A stretch of 64,000 bases of DNA, taken from the NCBI GenBank assembly GCA_019566135.1, contig GCA_019566135.1_3044.1; one strand, given 5' to 3'. Origin of the DNA: a phage. The notes under the pieces are model-generated. The model did not search any database. It was given only the letters and a program-made list of their open reading frames with translations, and was not told where the DNA came from. Below, piece by piece: positions 1,782-53,286 of this stretch (positions are counted from its first letter, which is position 1; every line of letters begins with the position of its first letter). The position numbers were made by a program, and so were the translations under genes.

Positions 1782-4046
1782 TCATAATTTACAGGATGAA
1801 CAATCTTCAGCTTTTGGAGTTTCTATTTCATAATCATCAGTACCAGAACCATCACGGGTATTATGATAATAGAAATTTTTTCCGCCAAAATACCAAAAAT
1901 ACAAAAGGTCATCAATCATTATTGACATTGGAACCTTTCCTTTTGGAAAAATCTGTGGGTCATAATATGTATTCGCCGAAGCTGATTGACAAACCCATTT
2001 CAGCATAATAGCTACCTGCGTAAGATAAGGTTTATTACCTTTCTTAGCTAATTTCCATGTATAATCATAGAGGTCTATGTTATGCTCAATATTGGGCACG
2101 ACTTGATTAAAGGAGCCCTCTTTTGATTCTTTAACAGAGACTGGTCCACGTGGAGGCTCGATACCGTTTGTACTGTTAGAAACTTGGGAAGATGACTCAC
2201 ATGGCATAAGTGCTGATAATGTGCTATTACGGATGCCAAAGAGCTTAAGGTCTTCCCGCAGCGACGACCAGTCACAAACGTATTTTGGAGCTGCGATTTG
2301 GTCAATCTTTTTATTGTACCAGTCGATAGGTAATTCGCCTCGAGACCAACGAGTGTCTGAATAATATTCGCAAGGTCCTTTTTCTTTGGCGAGCTTAATG
2401 GATGCTTTAATGAGTCCATACTGTAATCTCTCAAATAGTTCATGTGTTAAATCGTTAGCATCTTCATAAGAAGCAAAGTTACTTGCCAGCCAAGCTGCAT
2501 AGTTAGTAACACCTACACCGAGGTTACGACGCTTTTTAGCTTTTTCTGCTTCAGGAACTGGATATCCTTGGTAATCCAAAAGATTATCAAGAGCACGAAC
2601 TTGGACTTCTGCCAATTCATTAATTTTATCTTGGTCTTGCCAGTCAAAATTATCCAGTACGAATGCAGAGAGAGTACACAATCCAATTTCAGCATCAGGA
2701 CTATTCACATCATTTGTTGGAATAGCAATTTCACAGCACAAGTTACTCTGACGAATAGGTGCCTTTTCACGAATAAACGGAGTATAGTTATTCGTATTAT
2801 CAATGAACTGCACATAAATCCTTGCTGTTCCTGAACGTTCAGTCATGAGCAATTCAAATAGTTCACGGGCTTTAATACGCTTTTTACGAATATTAGGGTC
2901 TTTTTCTGCTGCTTCGTATAATTCACGGAAACGGTCTTGGTCTTTAAAATAAGAATAATACAGCTCTCCACCCATTTCATGTGGACTGAACAAAGTAATG
3001 TAATCGTTCTTTCCGAATCGTTCCATCATCAAATCATTCAGCTGAACGCCATAATCCATATGACGAATGCGGTTTTCTTCTACGCCTTTGTTATTTTTCA
3101 AAACGAGAAGATTTTCAACTTCCAAATGCCAAATAGGATAATAAGCAGTAGCAGCGCCGCCACGAATTCCACCCTGTGAGCATGATTTAACAGCAGTCTG
3201 AAAATGTTTCCAAAAAGGAATAACACCAGTATGGCGTACTTCACCCATGCCAATCTTAGAACCTTCGGCACGAATCATACCAACGTTAATACCAATTCCA
3301 GCACGTTTGGAGATATATTCAACAATTGAAGCGGAAGCCTTATTGATAGACTTTAATGAATCACCTGCCTCAATAACAACGCATGAACTAAACTGTCGAG
3401 TCGGAGTACGGCAACCAGCCATAATAGGAGTTGGCAATGAAATCTGTCGAGTAGATACTGCTTCATAAAAACGAATAACGTGTTTTAATCTATCAACAGG
3501 TTCATCTTGATGCAATGCCATTCCAATAGTCATAAATGCAAACTGTGGAGTTTCATAAATTTGACCGGTGGTTTTATCTTTAACTAGATATTTTTCTTTT
3601 AATTGCATCGCCCCGGAATAAGTAAATTCCATATCCCGCTCGTGCTTAATTTTTGATTCTAAAAATGTAATTTCTTCTGCTGAATATTTTGACAATAATT
3701 CAGGGTCGTATTTACCTTCATTTACGCAATAAGAAATATGGTCAATAAATGAACGTGGTTCATATTGTCCGTAAACATGCTTACGAAGAGCGAACATTAA
3801 ACAACGTGCAGCTACATATTGATAATCAGGCTCTTCAACCGAAATAGAATTCGCAGCAGCCTTAATGACAATAGTCTGAATATCATCAGTTGTCATTCCA
3901 TCACGGAGATAAGATTTAATATTTTCATATAATTCATAAGGATCTACTGATGTTCCTTCAGCTGCCCAAGATAAAACTTTAATAATTTTTTGTGGGTCAA
4001 AGCTCTGAGAAACACCACTACTTTTGATAACATTAATTAATTGCAT
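1782..4046 (-). CDS. nrdA: Ribonucleotide reductase large subunit
   Basis: 754 aa, same length as T4 NrdA; class I RNR motifs; C-terminal CSSCKL. Confidence 0.93.
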   Translation of the reverse strand: MQLINVIKSSGVSQSFDPQKIIKVLSWAAEGTSVDPYELYENIKSYLRDGMTTDDIQTIVIKAAANSISVEEPDYQYVAARCLMFALRKHVYGQYEPRSFIDHISYCVNEGKYDPELLSKYSAEEITFLESKIKHERDMEFTYSGAMQLKEKYLVKDKTTGQIYETPQFAFMTIGMALHQDEPVDRLKHVIRFYEAVSTRQISLPTPIMAGCRTPTRQFSSCVVIEAGDSLKSINKASASIVEYISKRAGIGINVGMIRAEGSKIGMGEVRHTGVIPFWKHFQTAVKSCSQGGIRGGAATAYYPIWHLEVENLLVLKNNKGVEENRIRHMDYGVQLNDLMMERFGKNDYITLFSPHEMGGELYYSYFKDQDRFRELYEAAEKDPNIRKKRIKARELFELLMTERSGTARIYVQFIDNTNNYTPFIREKAPIRQSNLCCEIAIPTNDVNSPDAEIGLCTLSAFVLDNFDWQDQDKINELAEVQVRALDNLLDYQGYPVPEAEKAKKRRNLGVGVTNYAAWLASNFASYEDANDLTHELFERLQYGLIKASIKLAKEKGPCEYYSDTRWSRGELPIDWYNKKIDQIAAPKYVCDWSSLREDLKLFGIRNSTLSALMPCESSSQVSNSTNGIEPPRGPVSVKESKEGSFNQVVPNIEHNIDLYDYTWKLAKKGNKPYLTQVAIMLKWVCQSASANTYYDPQIFPKGKVPMSIMIDDLLYFWYFGGKNFYYHNTRDGSGTDDYEIETPKAEDCSSCKL

Positions 4047-48618: not shown

Positions 48619-48819
48619 ATGGTACAAAAATTAATGGCACTTGTTAATGCCATAAAAGGTAATAAAAAACGTATAGCTTTTACTATTTCTGCTATGGTAG
48701 GAATTTTACTCTGGAACTTTATTTTATCACCAATTGCAATTGCGCATGGTGTTAATATTCCAGTAGTTACTCTTGATACATTTGTAGATTTAGCATTTGC
48801 TTTAGTTGGGTTGATTTAA
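48619..48819 (+). CDS. Small membrane protein on the opposite strand (66 aa)
   Basis: Strong SD AAGGAGG 5 nt before ATG 48619; two hydrophobic segments; converges on gene 61, overlapping its stop by 4 nt. Confidence 0.55.
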   Translation: MVQKLMALVNAIKGNKKRIAFTISAMVGILLWNFILSPIAIAHGVNIPVVTLDTFVDLAFALVGLI

Positions 48820-49844
48820 ATCTTAGCATATTTAGATAGCCGCATTTTAGCCATCAACCCCTGGGCAATATTATTTTTCATATATTCCATAATTTGTTCA
48901 GGGGTTGCACCTTCCTTTCTAATCATATCATTAACATCTTTAGATTTCCAGGGAGATTTATCCCAAAACATAATCCTTTCTCCTGCATCAACTAATTTAG
49001 TCATTCGTTTGATAGTGTCAGGGTGACGAGGTTCATTATCTAAAACCCACACTCGTCTATCTTTAAATGGAACAACTTCTAGGTCTAATTGACCACCCGT
49101 AATAGCTATACCATTTTCAATAAAAAGTGAATCTATAGGTCCTTCTAGAACATATACATCACCATCTTTAACTCGTTCAACACCGTAAATTTTTGTTGCC
49201 TCAGGATAAGCTTTAATGGTGATATATTTTTGAGGAGCATCTTTCTTTAATGCACGTCCTTGAAAAGACTCAGCTTTTCCATTAGCATTATAAATTGGAA
49301 TAACAAGACGAGGCTCAGAAATTTCCTTTTTGTATGTTCCCGGTGCTATACTATTAACTAATTTAGGCCATTCGGTTGTAAACCAAAGATATTTCCATTT
49401 ATCCTTTGGAATACAACGAGCTTTTACATATTTTATAATTGGATGGTCTTCCGCCAGTTTATCTAATCTAACACATGACGGAAGAGATTTAATTATTTTC
49501 TTCTCAGGTTGCTTAGGAAGTTCTTTAGGTTTTTCTACTGGACGACTTTTACCTTTTTCTTTTCTTATTTCAAAGATATACTCACGATATAAATCAGGTT
49601 CAAACTCCTTTAAATATATTCCGATTGGTGCATGATAATTACAGTTATAACAATGAATATTTCCTTCATTATTATCACCATAATACCATCCACGAGCTTT
49701 ATTCTGGTCGGTTTTTGAATCTCCACAAACTGGACATCTAAACCGCAATTTAAAAGTTGAACTATTATTTACTTGTGTGAATTTAGGTAAATGAGCTAAT
49801 GCACGGTATGCAAACTCATTATCAATCCAAGGTATTGATGACAT
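48816..49844 (-). CDS. 61: DNA primase gp61
   Basis: 342 aa (same as T4 gp61); N-terminal zinc ribbon CPVCGDS...CYNC. Confidence 0.93.
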   Translation of the reverse strand: MSSIPWIDNEFAYRALAHLPKFTQVNNSSTFKLRFRCPVCGDSKTDQNKARGWYYGDNNEGNIHCYNCNYHAPIGIYLKEFEPDLYREYIFEIRKEKGKSRPVEKPKELPKQPEKKIIKSLPSCVRLDKLAEDHPIIKYVKARCIPKDKWKYLWFTTEWPKLVNSIAPGTYKKEISEPRLVIPIYNANGKAESFQGRALKKDAPQKYITIKAYPEATKIYGVERVKDGDVYVLEGPIDSLFIENGIAITGGQLDLEVVPFKDRRVWVLDNEPRHPDTIKRMTKLVDAGERIMFWDKSPWKSKDVNDMIRKEGATPEQIMEYMKNNIAQGLMAKMRLSKYAKI

Positions 49845-49846
49845 TT

Positions 49847-50011
49847 TTACTCTTCTTTTTCTTTAGATTCCTCTTTTTTCTTTTTAGGAATCTGCTCAGG
49901 ACCTTTATTTACTACAGCGCCTGACGTTGTTCCAGTAGAGATATTTTCAGGATTACCACCTGAATCTCCAGCGACCATATCTTCTTTAATAAATTCTTTA
50001 TATGTTTTCAT
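49847..50011 (-). CDS. Small hydrophilic ORF (54 aa, MKTYKEFIKEDMVAGDSGGNPENISTGTT...)
   Basis: GAGG SD; its start lies inside junction repeat copy A. Confidence 0.4.
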   Translation of the reverse strand: MKTYKEFIKEDMVAGDSGGNPENISTGTTSGAVVNKGPEQIPKKKKEESKEKEE

Positions 50012-50057
50012 ATTAACCTCTATTCATAAAAGCATTAAAAATTTGGTCATCAATAGA
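50009..50057 (-). repeat. 49-bp gene-junction direct repeat, copy A
   Basis: 46 of 49 nt identical to 50367-50415; covers last 12 codons, stop, SD and ATG. Confidence 0.8.
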
Positions 50058-50369
50058 TGGCGCAGTAATATTTTCTGCATCATTTAGTAAATCATTAATT
50101 TCATCAGATAGCATAACACATGTACCTTTATTTCCTGTAATTGTTACTGCACAATTACGAACGTTTTCTTTATCAAATTTTAGGTTAATATTTTCGTAGT
50201 GAAAATCCTTTAATGCCGAATATATCTTTAAAATGAAATTGTCTTTTACTACAATAAACCCAACCTCACTATTAAAACGCGGTTCATGGAAACTGTAATA
50301 AACCTTTTCATCTATAAAATCGTATGAAATTTTTTCCATTTTTAAATATGAAAATTCAGAACTATACAT
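50013..50369 (-). CDS. Hypothetical protein (118 aa), truncated paralog of the next ORF
   Basis: Shares FIVVKDN motif and C-terminal SIDDQIFNAFMN(R/K)G with 50371..51003. Confidence 0.55.
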   Translation of the reverse strand: MYSSEFSYLKMEKISYDFIDEKVYYSFHEPRFNSEVGFIVVKDNFILKIYSALKDFHYENINLKFDKENVRNCAVTITGNKGTCVMLSDEINDLLNDAENITAPSIDDQIFNAFMNRG

Positions 50370-50415
50370 ATTAACCTTTATTCATAAAAGCATTAAAAAT
50401 TTGATCGTCAATAGA
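50367..50415 (-). repeat. 49-bp gene-junction direct repeat, copy B
   Basis: See copy A. Confidence 0.8.
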
Positions 50416-51003
50416 AACTTTTACTTTAGGCTGTTCTTCAAACGGTAATTCATATCCACATATTACAATTTTGTGATCGATACCAAAATACACAGAAGCA
50501 ATATTATTAATATTATTTTCAGTGAAATCTAAATCAACATCAATATCTTTTTGACTAACGCTCAAAGGATAATTAATACGAATAATTCGATTATCTTTAA
50601 CAAAGATTCCACCGACATACTCTGTGCTGCGTTTAAAGTTTACACGTTTCCTAAATGAAAAATATTCAGGTTCTTTATGGGCTCGACTCATAGGGCTTAA
50701 AGTGTATTCCGAATATGAAATATCAAATCCTACACCTTCAATATGAGCCAAAGTGTCATGATTAAACCAATTATAATCGTATGCCAAATCCATTAAATTG
50801 TAATATGTGAAAGGCACCGGATTAACATCATATGTTGTACCTTTAAAATCTGCCCAGGCAACGATTTCGTTATCTTTAACAATTACAAAAATTGTGCCAA
50901 TAAGATATCCACGGTTATTTTCATCAGGCGTTATATTATAACATTGTGCATCAGGAAATTTACCGTATTTAAACGGTGGATTTTTGTGCATATAATAAAT
51001 CAT
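50371..51003 (-). CDS. Gene 61.2-position protein (210 aa); possibly the anti-DarT factor AdfA family
   Basis: Position between 61 and sp; internal repeats of an IFVKDN-like motif; AdfA assignment is from memory of the literature. Confidence 0.45.
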   Translation of the reverse strand: MIYYMHKNPPFKYGKFPDAQCYNITPDENNRGYLIGTIFVIVKDNEIVAWADFKGTTYDVNPVPFTYYNLMDLAYDYNWFNHDTLAHIEGVGFDISYSEYTLSPMSRAHKEPEYFSFRKRVNFKRSTEYVGGIFVKDNRIIRINYPLSVSQKDIDVDLDFTENNINNIASVYFGIDHKIVICGYELPFEEQPKVKVSIDDQIFNAFMNKG

Positions 51004-51004
51004 A

Positions 51005-51298
51005 TTATTCGCCTGTGATTTCGGTTACGATATTTTTGTTATTAAAGTTTTTATCGCAATACAGAACATAATTATACTGCATTACACCACCAGACTTAAG
51101 TTGTTTTTGCACTTCAGCTTTCATTTCAGGACGATCGCGCTCAACGATATTCATAATATCCGCTTCAATTTGAGTTTCAACTTCAGTCTGATCTGCAGTC
51201 ATAGACCATTCACACAAATCTTTATCATATCCTGCCATAGCAGGCTGAGTAGCACAAGAAGCCAAAGTAAAAATTGTAGCAAAAATAAATTTTTTCAT
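51005..51298 (-). CDS. sp: Spackle periplasmic protein
   Basis: 97 aa with signal peptide MKKFIFATIFTLASCATQPAMA; size and position as T4 sp. Confidence 0.75.
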   Translation of the reverse strand: MKKFIFATIFTLASCATQPAMAGYDKDLCEWSMTADQTEVETQIEADIMNIVERDRPEMKAEVQKQLKSGGVMQYNYVLYCDKNFNNKNIVTEITGE

Positions 51299-51358
51299 GA
51301 TAATCTCCTCAGTAGTTTATGTTTATATAGTATCTCAATTTCCAACAAAAGTAAACAG

Positions 51359-51616
51359 CTATTTTAAAACTTCTGCGTAATCACATGTTACAAACTGTTT
51401 CTCTAGCTTAACGATTTTACGAAAATACCTTTTATACTGACGAATCTGCCTCTTCGTAGGACGTACAGCAAACTTAATAAATTCCACTCGACCAAATGGA
51501 GGACTTTCTTCTGCTGGAATATCTAACACCAATTCCCACGTATCCGCAATAAGTGCTTTGAATTGCGTATTTTTCCTGACGTTATACGGAGTAGGTTTAA
51601 ATAAAACAATATGCAT
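51359..51616 (-). CDS. Gene 61.4-position protein (85 aa); possibly TifA (toxIN inhibitor)
   Basis: ATG 51616 with GAGGA SD inside the dmd 3' end; basic C-terminus. Confidence 0.45.
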   Translation of the reverse strand: MHIVLFKPTPYNVRKNTQFKALIADTWELVLDIPAEESPPFGRVEFIKFAVRPTKRQIRQYKRYFRKIVKLEKQFVTCDYAEVLK

Positions 51617-51617
51617 A

Positions 51618-51800
51618 TTATCCTCGGCAATCCACTTCGCACACTTTCTTGTCATCAATGAAAGCTTTAACTAATGCTTTATTAACTTCAGCATATTGAG
51701 TAGTAGCCCATTGAACGTCATCTTTCATCATTGTGATTTCTTTAGTAAACATGCTTTCATTCTTAAACCACCCCATAAAAACTACTTTTACCAATTCCAT
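51618..51800 (-). CDS. dmd: Dmd (discriminator of mRNA degradation; antitoxin against RnlA/LsoA)
   Basis: 60 aa as T4 Dmd; directly downstream of gene 41. Confidence 0.75.
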   Translation of the reverse strand: MELVKVVFMGWFKNESMFTKEITMMKDDVQWATTQYAEVNKALVKAFIDDKKVCEVDCRG

Positions 51801-51858
51801 AACAATCTCCTCATTTAACCAACAAGACTACTATACCATAGTCTTGTCAGCTTGTAAA

Positions 51859-53286
51859 CTAAAATTTTAATTCATTTGCCAAAGCATCTAACTGAGCTCG
51901 AGCTGATTCGTTTCTTTGATAGCGATTCTGTTCAGCCTGAATCTGTTGTGAACCTGCTACTTCACTCACTTCGGTTGGAGTAGAATCTTGTTCAATTTCT
52001 ACCCATTTTTGATTTCCTTTTTGAACACCCATCAAAAACTTATTCCACTTATTCTTATCACCATATCGTGATTTGATTTGCTTAATAAGTTGTTGTTCAG
52101 CAGCTGCTAGCTCCTCAGTTTCAATGACCGCAAGCATAAAATCAGCTGTTGCTGGAAGACCAGCAGATTCTGCAATATCGCTCATGTTAACATCGGAAGA
52201 GTCCCAAGCTTGTTTACCGACCTGTGCTGCAGTCCAAAGAACAGTTTCGGTTTCAACAGCCAGAGCACGCAATTCCTCTGCGATAGCTTTAACAGTTGTG
52301 TAACTATTTTCTGAATAAACTCGGATGCGACAAGATTTACAAATACCCAGATAGTCGACAATAATGATTGTTGGAACAAAATTCTTTTTGAGCTTCAATT
52401 CATTCAAGAGAGACCTGAATGTGTTAGCGTCTGCTCCACCAGTAGGATATTGCTTAACGATTAAACGACCAAGGGTAGATTTCTCACGCCATTTTTCCAT
52501 TTTTCCTTTATATTCAGCGTAAGAAATATGCCCATCATCAATGTCATCAAGAGAAACATCAAGCATGTTAGCGTCAATACGCTTAGCACAGACTTCTTCT
52601 GCCATTTCCATGGAAATGTAAAGAACATTATGACCGAGCTGCAAATAATCTGCCGCTAATGAACACAATCCTAATGATTTACCAACGTTAACGCCAGCCA
52701 TTAAAACGTTCAGTGTTCCAGTCTCAGCTCCGCCTTTAGTAATTTTGTTTAGAATTCTGAGTTTAAATGGAACCTTACGAGCTTTATTCATATAAGATAG
52801 CCAACGCGCTTCATAGTCATCCATCCAATCATGACCAACGTAGCTATCAAATGAAATTGATAATGCTTGGCGCATGATGTCAGGAATAGCACCTACATCT
52901 GGCATTTTCTTATTTCGTTTTTCCGGAGGAAGCTCAGCATTAGTTTGAATTTCGATTATTTTAGACGTAGCATTAAACATCGCCCTTTGCTGAACATATT
53001 TTTCTGTTTCTTTTACTAACCAGCTGTGGTCTTCTGGAGAATCAGCCAGTTTTGAAATAAGTGTTTTTACACCAGAATATTCTGTTTCAGTAAATGAACT
53101 ATTTTCTAATGCAACATTTAACGCATTAATAGATGGAACGCTATGATACTCATTAACATGAGATTTAATTAATTTGAACGTATTTTTAGCTGGACCACTT
53201 TCAAAATATTCTGAATCCATATATGGCCAAACTTTTGAAAAATAAGCTTGATCAAATATAAGATGAGAAAGAATAATTTCTACCAC
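51859..53286 (-). CDS. 41: Replicative DNA helicase gp41
   Basis: 475 aa (same as T4 gp41); DnaB-like Walker motifs. Confidence 0.93.
   Translation of the reverse strand: MVEIILSHLIFDQAYFSKVWPYMDSEYFESGPAKNTFKLIKSHVNEYHSVPSINALNVALENSSFTETEYSGVKTLISKLADSPEDHSWLVKETEKYVQQRAMFNATSKIIEIQTNAELPPEKRNKKMPDVGAIPDIMRQALSISFDSYVGHDWMDDYEARWLSYMNKARKVPFKLRILNKITKGGAETGTLNVLMAGVNVGKSLGLCSLAADYLQLGHNVLYISMEMAEEVCAKRIDANMLDVSLDDIDDGHISYAEYKGKMEKWREKSTLGRLIVKQYPTGGADANTFRSLLNELKLKKNFVPTIIIVDYLGICKSCRIRVYSENSYTTVKAIAEELRALAVETETVLWTAAQVGKQAWDSSDVNMSDIAESAGLPATADFMLAVIETEELAAAEQQLIKQIKSRYGDKNKWNKFLMGVQKGNQKWVEIEQDSTPTEVSEVAGSQQIQAEQNRYQRNESARAQLDALANELKF

Follow-up and report, generated by a model that had tools for sequence, protein, structure and literature searches.

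We found that the slot between sp and 61.1 in a T4-like phage is best read as a two-gene array of the AdfA family, in which adfA is followed by an ancient single-module paralogue and the 49-bp direct repeat at the ends of both genes provides the homology by which cassettes are lost and alleles exchanged. Taken as a whole, we regard this explanation as likely. The repeat itself appears to be an old, strongly conserved gene end and not a young duplication scar, because the two genes are saturated with differences outside their tails, orthologues are found in other genera and a third protein family ends in the same tail.

The window, by which we mean the whole stretch of 64,000 nucleotides that was analysed, is a segment of a Tequatrovirus genome. 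Positions 49800–51400 are 99.9% identical in DNA to Escherichia phage teqdroes and match 665 records of T4-like phages, 122 of them with at least 80% query coverage. Read on the minus strand, the genes follow one another in the order gene 41, dmd, 61.4/tifA, sp, a 210-aa ORF, a 118-aa ORF, 61.1 and primase gene 61; the corresponding order in T4 is sp, 61.2, 61.1, 61, without the 118-aa ORF. All features described here lie on this strand. The upstream neighbour sp (spackle, 51005..51298) has its stop codon 1 nt before the ATG of the 210-aa ORF (50371..51003), which is followed by the 118-aa ORF (50013..50369), the 54-aa gene 61.1 (49847..50011) and gene 61 (48816–49844). The region has been described as an anti-TA island with dmd, tifA and adfA (PMC9391042). 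A single good promoter-like site was found on the minus strand, upstream of dmd; neither repeat copy contains one, and a search of 49700–52000 gave no terminator-like sites.

The 210-aa ORF occupies the position of T4 61.2, between sp and 61.1 in the gene 61–41 interval, and matches Pfam PF23813 (AdfA) over its full length, with residues 1–210 on profile positions 1–211 (461.7 bits, E 3.2e-139; gathering cut-off 27). It is a member of phrog_3781, and its orthologue in the near-identical phage Ec_O157kw is annotated 'anti-DarT factor A'. We assign it on these grounds as AdfA (T4 gp61.2), a known anti-DarT factor, in accordance with the first-pass annotation, which had placed the locus where anti-defence genes of T4-like phages have been mapped. 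AdfA was discovered via escape mutants of RB69, and it binds and thereby neutralises the DarT1 DNA ADP-ribosyltransferase with a specificity set by residue 164 (PMC11825919). The R164H variant bound DarT1 in a two-hybrid assay and neutralised it; action on DarT1 depends on H164, and T4-type alleles have His164 (PMC11825919). Deletion of adfA from T4 gave no phenotype on DarTG1, even without adfN, and the resistance of T-even phages to DarTG2 is still without explanation (PMC11825919). At the RB69-equivalent position 164, His is found in T4 and Arg in RB69-like loci, whereas the AdfA of the window has Asn (residue 167 from the upstream Met, in 'NINNIAS'). Its allele therefore carries neither the neutralising His nor the non-neutralising Arg, and it lacks the His164 by which DarT1-neutralising alleles are recognised (PMC11825919). 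Pairwise dN/dS for AdfA ranged from 0.09 to 0.34, and the N-terminal half of the protein occurs as one copy in each of 487 records.

The 118-aa gene appears to be an ancient single-module paralogue, built from the C-terminal module of AdfA and the same C-terminal peptide. It matches phrog_4122 (E 2e-72) and also PF23813, the latter at 31.9 bits (gathering score 27) and over profile positions 113–211 only, which include the module with specificity residue 164. BLASTP aligned it with AdfA residues 111–210 at 37% identity over 106 residues (E 6e-11). After removal of the 14-aa tail, the Smith–Waterman z was still 6.7, and 0 of 2000 shuffles reached the observed score. Comparison of tail-trimmed family alignments of the two proteins by hhalign gave P 7e-4 from shallow alignments, and the tail-trimmed profile–profile comparisons overall gave P ~1e-3 to 7e-3, limited by the same shallowness. 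The two ORFs had been proposed as paralogues from their shared motif and ends, and this part of the proposal is upheld, with homology that extends past the last 12 residues and persists without the tail. No significant match was seen between the 118-aa ORF and the N-terminal half of AdfA (z 1.7), and the ORF has one module where AdfA has two. A precomputed PF23813 label sits on P0001–P0005.

The motif (G)IFV(I)VKDN, noticed earlier in both ORFs, was found three times. It reads IFVIVKDN in the N-terminal module of AdfA (residues 38–45, strand beta3 and the next turn; 50869..50892), GGIFVKDN in the C-terminal module (residues 131–138; 50590..50613) and GFIVVKDN in the 118-aa paralogue (residues 37–44; 50238..50261), each on the minus strand. 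The 13-nt direct repeat D5 (50870–50882 and 50591–50603) codes for the KDN part of this motif.

Structure models follow the same division. In the AF2 model of AdfA (pLDDT 71), a beta5-alpha module occurs twice (residues 2–77 and 100–173) and is followed by a C-terminal helix (198–207). The model of the 118-aa protein (pLDDT 81) runs b1–b5, a1, b6, a2 and a tail helix (residues 106–115), with strands and helices in the same order as in the AdfA model. An internal duplication in AdfA, with two similar beta5-alpha modules, is suggested mainly by this moderate-confidence model, in which position 164 (RB69 numbering) is predicted to lie in the helix of the second module. The tail helix is modelled at low confidence (pLDDT 51–60), and its role is something we infer. 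In a Foldseek search of BFVD, the significant neighbours of either model were confined to AdfA, the 118-aa family and a 145-aa family described below, and a search of the PDB gave no convincing relative.

Direct comparison confirmed the 49-bp direct repeat that had been pointed out between 50009–50057 and 50367–50415, with 46 of the 49 bases identical. In minus-strand orientation, both copies read TCT ATT GAY GAY CAA ATT TTT AAT GCT TTT ATG AAT ARA GGT TAA T ATG and are made up of 14 codons (SIDDQIFNAFMN[R/K]G), the stop codon TAA, one base (T) and the ATG of the next gene, with a Shine–Dalgarno sequence (GAGG or AAGG) inside the last two codons. The first-pass annotation had described the stop, Shine–Dalgarno and ATG correctly and had counted 12 codons where there are 14. 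Copy 1 (50367..50415) holds the last 14 codons of adfA (SIDDQIFNAFMNKG) and the start of the 118-aa gene, with AAGG; copy 2 (50009..50057) holds the last 14 codons of the 118-aa gene (SIDDQIFNAFMNRG), with GAGG, and its last triplet is the start codon of 61.1. Copy 2 is 100% identical to the 61.2/61.1 junction of T4.

A degenerate pattern with up to 3 mismatches found two sites in the 64-kb window, both of them the repeat copies, and none in 100 shuffles, and the 16-nt junction core is likewise confined within the window to these two sites. A general RBS or terminator motif shared by many unrelated junctions, which had been named as the finding that would speak against a duplication, is thereby rejected. 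RNA folding at the two junctions was not significant (z-scores −1.7 and +0.4). A 6-bp TCTATT/AATAGA stem in copy 2 was considered as a conserved RNA structure and rejected, as it is broken in copy 1 and missing in other genera.

The tail is a property of the slot across Tevenvirinae. Three protein families in this slot share the ending S/A-I/V-DDQIFNAFM-N/K-R-G/D followed by TAATATG, the third being a family of ~145 aa (JS98 ORF030c / VR7 ORF039c, phrog_8539) that fills the slot in Dhakavirus-like and Gaprivervirus-like loci. Very divergent members still retain DDQIFNAFMNRG. At least four kinds of gene follow the tail, namely 61.1, the 118-aa gene, a tifA-like DUF7279 gene and an RB69 ORF033c-like gene, and the junction ...GGT TAA T ATG is invariant before all four. 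This constraint would be most simply explained by a conserved C-terminal peptide together with translational coupling. The 145-aa family is probably related to AdfA, to judge by the tail, by a weak alignment at the N-terminus and by Foldseek E values between 1e-3 and 2e-4.

Related genomes carry either gene alone or both. Only AdfA is present in T4, T6 and loci L007, L010 and L022; only the 118-aa gene in T2, HY01, sb4 and L008; and both in RB32, AR1, Kha5h, bov9_1, Ec_O157kw, L009, L026, L027 and the window. Relative to the window, T4 and T6 are missing exactly 358 bp, from repeat to repeat, and the Gaprivervirus-like pair L020/L021 shows the same clean cassette difference. In the T2-type state, only a 14-nt remnant, TAGAGGTTAGTATG (given also as TTAGAGGTTAGTATG), is left after the stop codon of sp. 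It looks like a piece of the tail end, and the T2-type arrangement appears to come from a different deletion and not from recombination between two 49-bp copies. The IMG/VR scan yielded 19 loci and the metagenome scan 8 loci, and architecture frequencies are rough estimates at this scale.

Pairs of two-gene loci are mosaic, with boundaries at the repeats. Between the window and L009, adfA differs at 3 of 633 bases (dS 0.00) and the adjoining 118-aa gene at 53 of 357 (dS 0.38); between the window and RB32 the relation is reversed, with 144 of 633 bases different in adfA and 8 of 357 in the 118-aa gene. The change is sharp. Compared with L009, the final 250 nt of adfA hold 0 mismatches, tail 1 holds 1 and the opening 120 nt of the 118-aa gene hold 25, and the divergence stops at tail 2. 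Compared with RB32 or Kha5h, the same three segments hold 28, 2 and 1–2 mismatches. The ends of the indels (T4/T6 and L020/L021) and the mosaic breakpoints (L009, RB32 and Kha5h) thus fall inside the repeats, as would be expected of a recombination linker, and this bears out the earlier suggestion of a cassette open to gain and loss through homologous recombination at the repeat. The codon before the final GGT adds a further mark. In two-gene loci the tail of AdfA ends AAA GGT and that of the 118-aa protein AGA GGT (10/10), while in AdfA-only loci the tail of AdfA ends AGA GGT (5/5), with T4-type and window-type alleles alike. This K/R codon pattern fits crossovers upstream of that codon.

According to our model, the 49-bp repeat would combine the conserved coding sequence of the tail with a translational-coupling junction (Shine–Dalgarno sequence in the last two codons, TAA, one base, ATG), and its conservation would come mainly through the peptide and the coupling. 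Phage homologous recombination would then cross over within the repeat, because the paralogues, saturated everywhere else, are near-identical in DNA only here. Within one genome, a crossover of copy 1 with copy 2 would delete the 118-aa cassette and give the T4/T6 arrangement, and crossovers between genomes would exchange adfA alleles and 118-aa alleles independently. The use of the repeat as a crossover site is deduced from genome comparisons, as are the directions of individual historical events, and we consider it probable as part of the whole explanation.

The strongest rival accepts the constraint and denies the recombination, so that the repeat would be kept purely for protein function and coupling and the mosaic blocks would reflect selection gene by gene. 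The tail peptide is indeed nearly invariant across genera and families, the Shine–Dalgarno sequence and the start codon belong to the repeat, and 33 of 42 bases would be identical from codon bias alone. Selection acting gene by gene would have to account for a dS of 0.00 next to one of 0.38 in adjoining genes of one genome pair, for mismatch densities that change within 49 bp in several independent pairs, for a 358-bp indel that ends in the repeats, and for a K/R codon that in all 15 loci goes with the downstream gene rather than with the allele of AdfA. We therefore regard this rival as rather improbable. The two tails also resemble each other in DNA beyond what a common peptide and codon bias would give, with 39 of 42 coding bases matching where 33.3 are expected (P ~0.005), and the two tails of RB32 differ at 1 base of 49. 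This extra nucleotide-level similarity in Tequatrovirus would fit an exchange of sequence from one copy to the other. Homogenisation does not seem to be universal, since ~7 of 42 bases differ between the two tails of Gaprivervirus-like genomes.

The 118-aa protein could also be a partner or regulator of AdfA, for instance by pairing through the tail helix or by mimicking the C-terminal module. Its gene adjoins adfA, is translationally coupled to it and has module and tail in common with it. However, the 118-aa gene stays under purifying selection in T2, HY01, sb4 and L008, which have no adfA, and in Elenatom it is intact although the adfA next to it is broken. Since it occurs by itself in T2-type phages, the gene does not appear to depend on AdfA, and a partner role seems to us distinctly unlikely. 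The 118-aa protein may instead act by itself as a binder and inhibitor, directed at a different DarT variant or at some related toxin.

The two paralogues seem to derive from an old duplication. Outside the tail, 83 aligned codons show 31% amino-acid and 44% nucleotide identity, and third-codon positions match at 35%, compared with 36% expected from base composition; inside the tail, 12 of 14 third positions match. The 118-aa family is a separate conserved lineage, intact in ~338 phage records, with ≥90% identity in 294. Its orthologues RB32 ORF033c, AR1_036 and T2 '61.2' (phrog_4122) are 95–100% identical to the 118-aa ORF, and orthologues at 43–47% identity are found in Gaprivervirus-like genomes (VR7; loci L019, L020 and L029). 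The first-pass annotation had read the repeat as the footprint of a recent tandem duplication, a fresh scar at which copy number could now be changing. A direct repeat of 46/49 at both gene ends speaks for such an event, and T4 is known to amplify the neighbouring dmd–tifA segment via short homologies under toxIN selection (PMC9391042). This reading does not survive the comparison of the two genes, in which high nucleotide identity is confined to the 49 bp and the remainder of the duplicated unit has reached chance at third positions, nor the existence of orthologues in other genera and of a third family with the same tail. The junction occurs as 909 copies in 710 phage records. Among 40 evenly sampled Tequatrovirus-level records, 12 have two copies and none has more, and with at most two copies in the sampled records nothing speaks for ongoing copy-number expansion. 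A recent duplication is accordingly very improbable. Still less credible is the view that the gene is what remains of a duplicated adfA in decay. Its match to AdfA is limited to the C-terminal half, but this view is contradicted by an intact ORF with its own Shine–Dalgarno sequence and ATG, a confident fold prediction and pairwise dN/dS values of 0.03–0.40 across many genomes and genera. These values are comparable to those of AdfA, and the 118-aa ORF has the marks of an intact gene under purifying selection.

Our reading of an ancient paralogue array with a conserved end can be set beside three known cases. The first is AdfA itself (RB69/T4 gp61.2, PF23813), whose family takes in the 210-aa ORF over its full length and whose genomic slot this ORF occupies; the 118-aa protein differs in lacking the N-terminal module. 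The RB32 record labels its 118-aa orthologue 'similar to gp61.2', and the records of RB32 ORF033c, AR1_036 and T2 '61.2' otherwise treat these genes as hypothetical proteins, without the domain correspondence, the tail or the recombination boundaries. The second is the shuffling of PeSLs in T4-type phages, where short conserved flanks serve as homology patches for the insertion, deletion and replacement of accessory ORFs in hyperplastic regions (PMC2839356, PMC4122927). The likeness is that of a short conserved sequence beside accessory ORFs used as a homology patch. However, PeSLs are non-coding and carry an early promoter and a stem-loop, whereas the patch in the window is made of 14 codons and a coupling junction, and a regulatory cassette of PeSL type (PMC2839356) is ruled out here, the flanking promoter and stem-loop terminator both being missing. 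The third is the amplification of dmd–tifA, which concerns the same anti-TA island and likewise changes gene content by short-homology recombination. It gave many copies of identical units in the laboratory, whereas the paralogues of the present locus are two in number, ancient and diverged, and no natural genome sampled has more than two junction copies.

A more far-reaching version of our explanation would make the tail and junction a dual-use cassette linker. The tail would then be a docking helix of the AdfA, 118-aa and 145-aa inhibitors and at the same time a portable patch of DNA homology, by which Tevenvirinae would combine, add and drop inhibitors in one coupled slot, and the half-size paralogues would supply the inhibitors still missing for other DarT variants such as DarT2. 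We put this forward as speculation that is on balance unlikely, if less so than any of the rivals above. If true, the slot would resemble an array driven by homologous recombination and not by an integrase. Short of that, the locus is fairly ordinary anti-defence gene shuffling and not a new kind of system.

To our knowledge, AdfA is one of few characterised phage DarTG inhibitors. The 118-aa paralogue appears to keep the module with the specificity residue, which makes it a concrete candidate for further anti-toxin activities, and the 14-residue tail offers a defined target for mutation. The locus is, moreover, a clean natural example of a conserved gene end that would act as a crossover site and reassort anti-defence alleles. 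An exhaustive profile search of 1.84 billion representatives returned 10 clusters only, and therefore there is no wider family to draw on; the AdfA superfamily seems to be tiny and restricted to the T4-like phage group. Within that group, T2 has been described as naturally without an adfA homologue (PMC11825919). It carries the 118-aa paralogue in the adfA slot, and T2-type phages together with a sizeable share of Tequatrovirus, by rough estimate, hold this conserved single-module relative of AdfA there.

The AdfA protein itself appears to be mosaic, because its N-terminal classes are far apart (~60% identity) while the C-terminal halves of the same two classes are 84-86% identical. The two allele classes of the N-terminal module (window 50689-51003) are sharply distinct, and the module of the window type shares ~90% identity with the AdfA of RB69-like phages (Mosigvirus) and only that ~60% with the T4 type. 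At position 164 of AdfA, His neutralises DarT1 and Arg does not (PMC11825919). The codon equivalent to RB69 AdfA residue 164 is that of residue 167 in the window (50503-50505, minus strand), which encodes Asn, in what looks to be a third allele occurring naturally beside His and Arg. The close relative RB68 has His at the equivalent position.

In phage Elenatom, adfA is disrupted (locus L005, 1368-1990): an N-terminal fragment of 98 aa is left, with a short ORF downstream of it, and the 119-aa paralogue beside the broken gene is intact. T2 has been stated to be naturally without an adfA homologue (PMC11825919). In its GenBank record (MH751506; locus L003, 2001-2357), a 118-aa AdfA-family paralogue is present directly after sp and is named gp61.2.

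Variants were also seen at the gene ends. In one RB69-like metagenome contig (L031, 1757-1830), the 65-aa gene downstream of adfA is deleted when compared with L030 (1981-2218). The AdfA tail is followed by TAAAATG, and the deletion begins exactly 3′ of this sequence; the junction ATG thus bounds an indel in Mosigvirus-like phages as well. In Shigella phage sb4 (L039), the tail of the 118-aa gene ends in AGA TTT TAA (..NRF) and not in AGA GGT TAA, and with this change the GAGG Shine-Dalgarno sequence of 61.1 is lost.

The last ~46 residues of gp61.1 (54 aa, window 49847-50011) recur at the C-terminal end of a protein of 155-162 aa (phrog_2086), which is found in RB69-like loci and in T4-like loci that are more distant (2700-3167 and 4665-5132 in L017/L018; 2244-2732 in L032/L033). 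gp61.1 may represent a longer gene in truncated form. For both teqdroes and HY01, RefSeq calls gp61.1 'major capsid domain-containing protein', which looks like an annotation artefact, since the protein has only 54 aa and is rich in lysine and glutamate.

Just downstream of gene 61, on the opposite strand, a 66-aa ORF (window 48619-48819, plus strand) is the counterpart of the RB32 ORF030w/RB69 ORF029w gene. T4 has no annotated counterpart, and gene 61 adjoins dam there.
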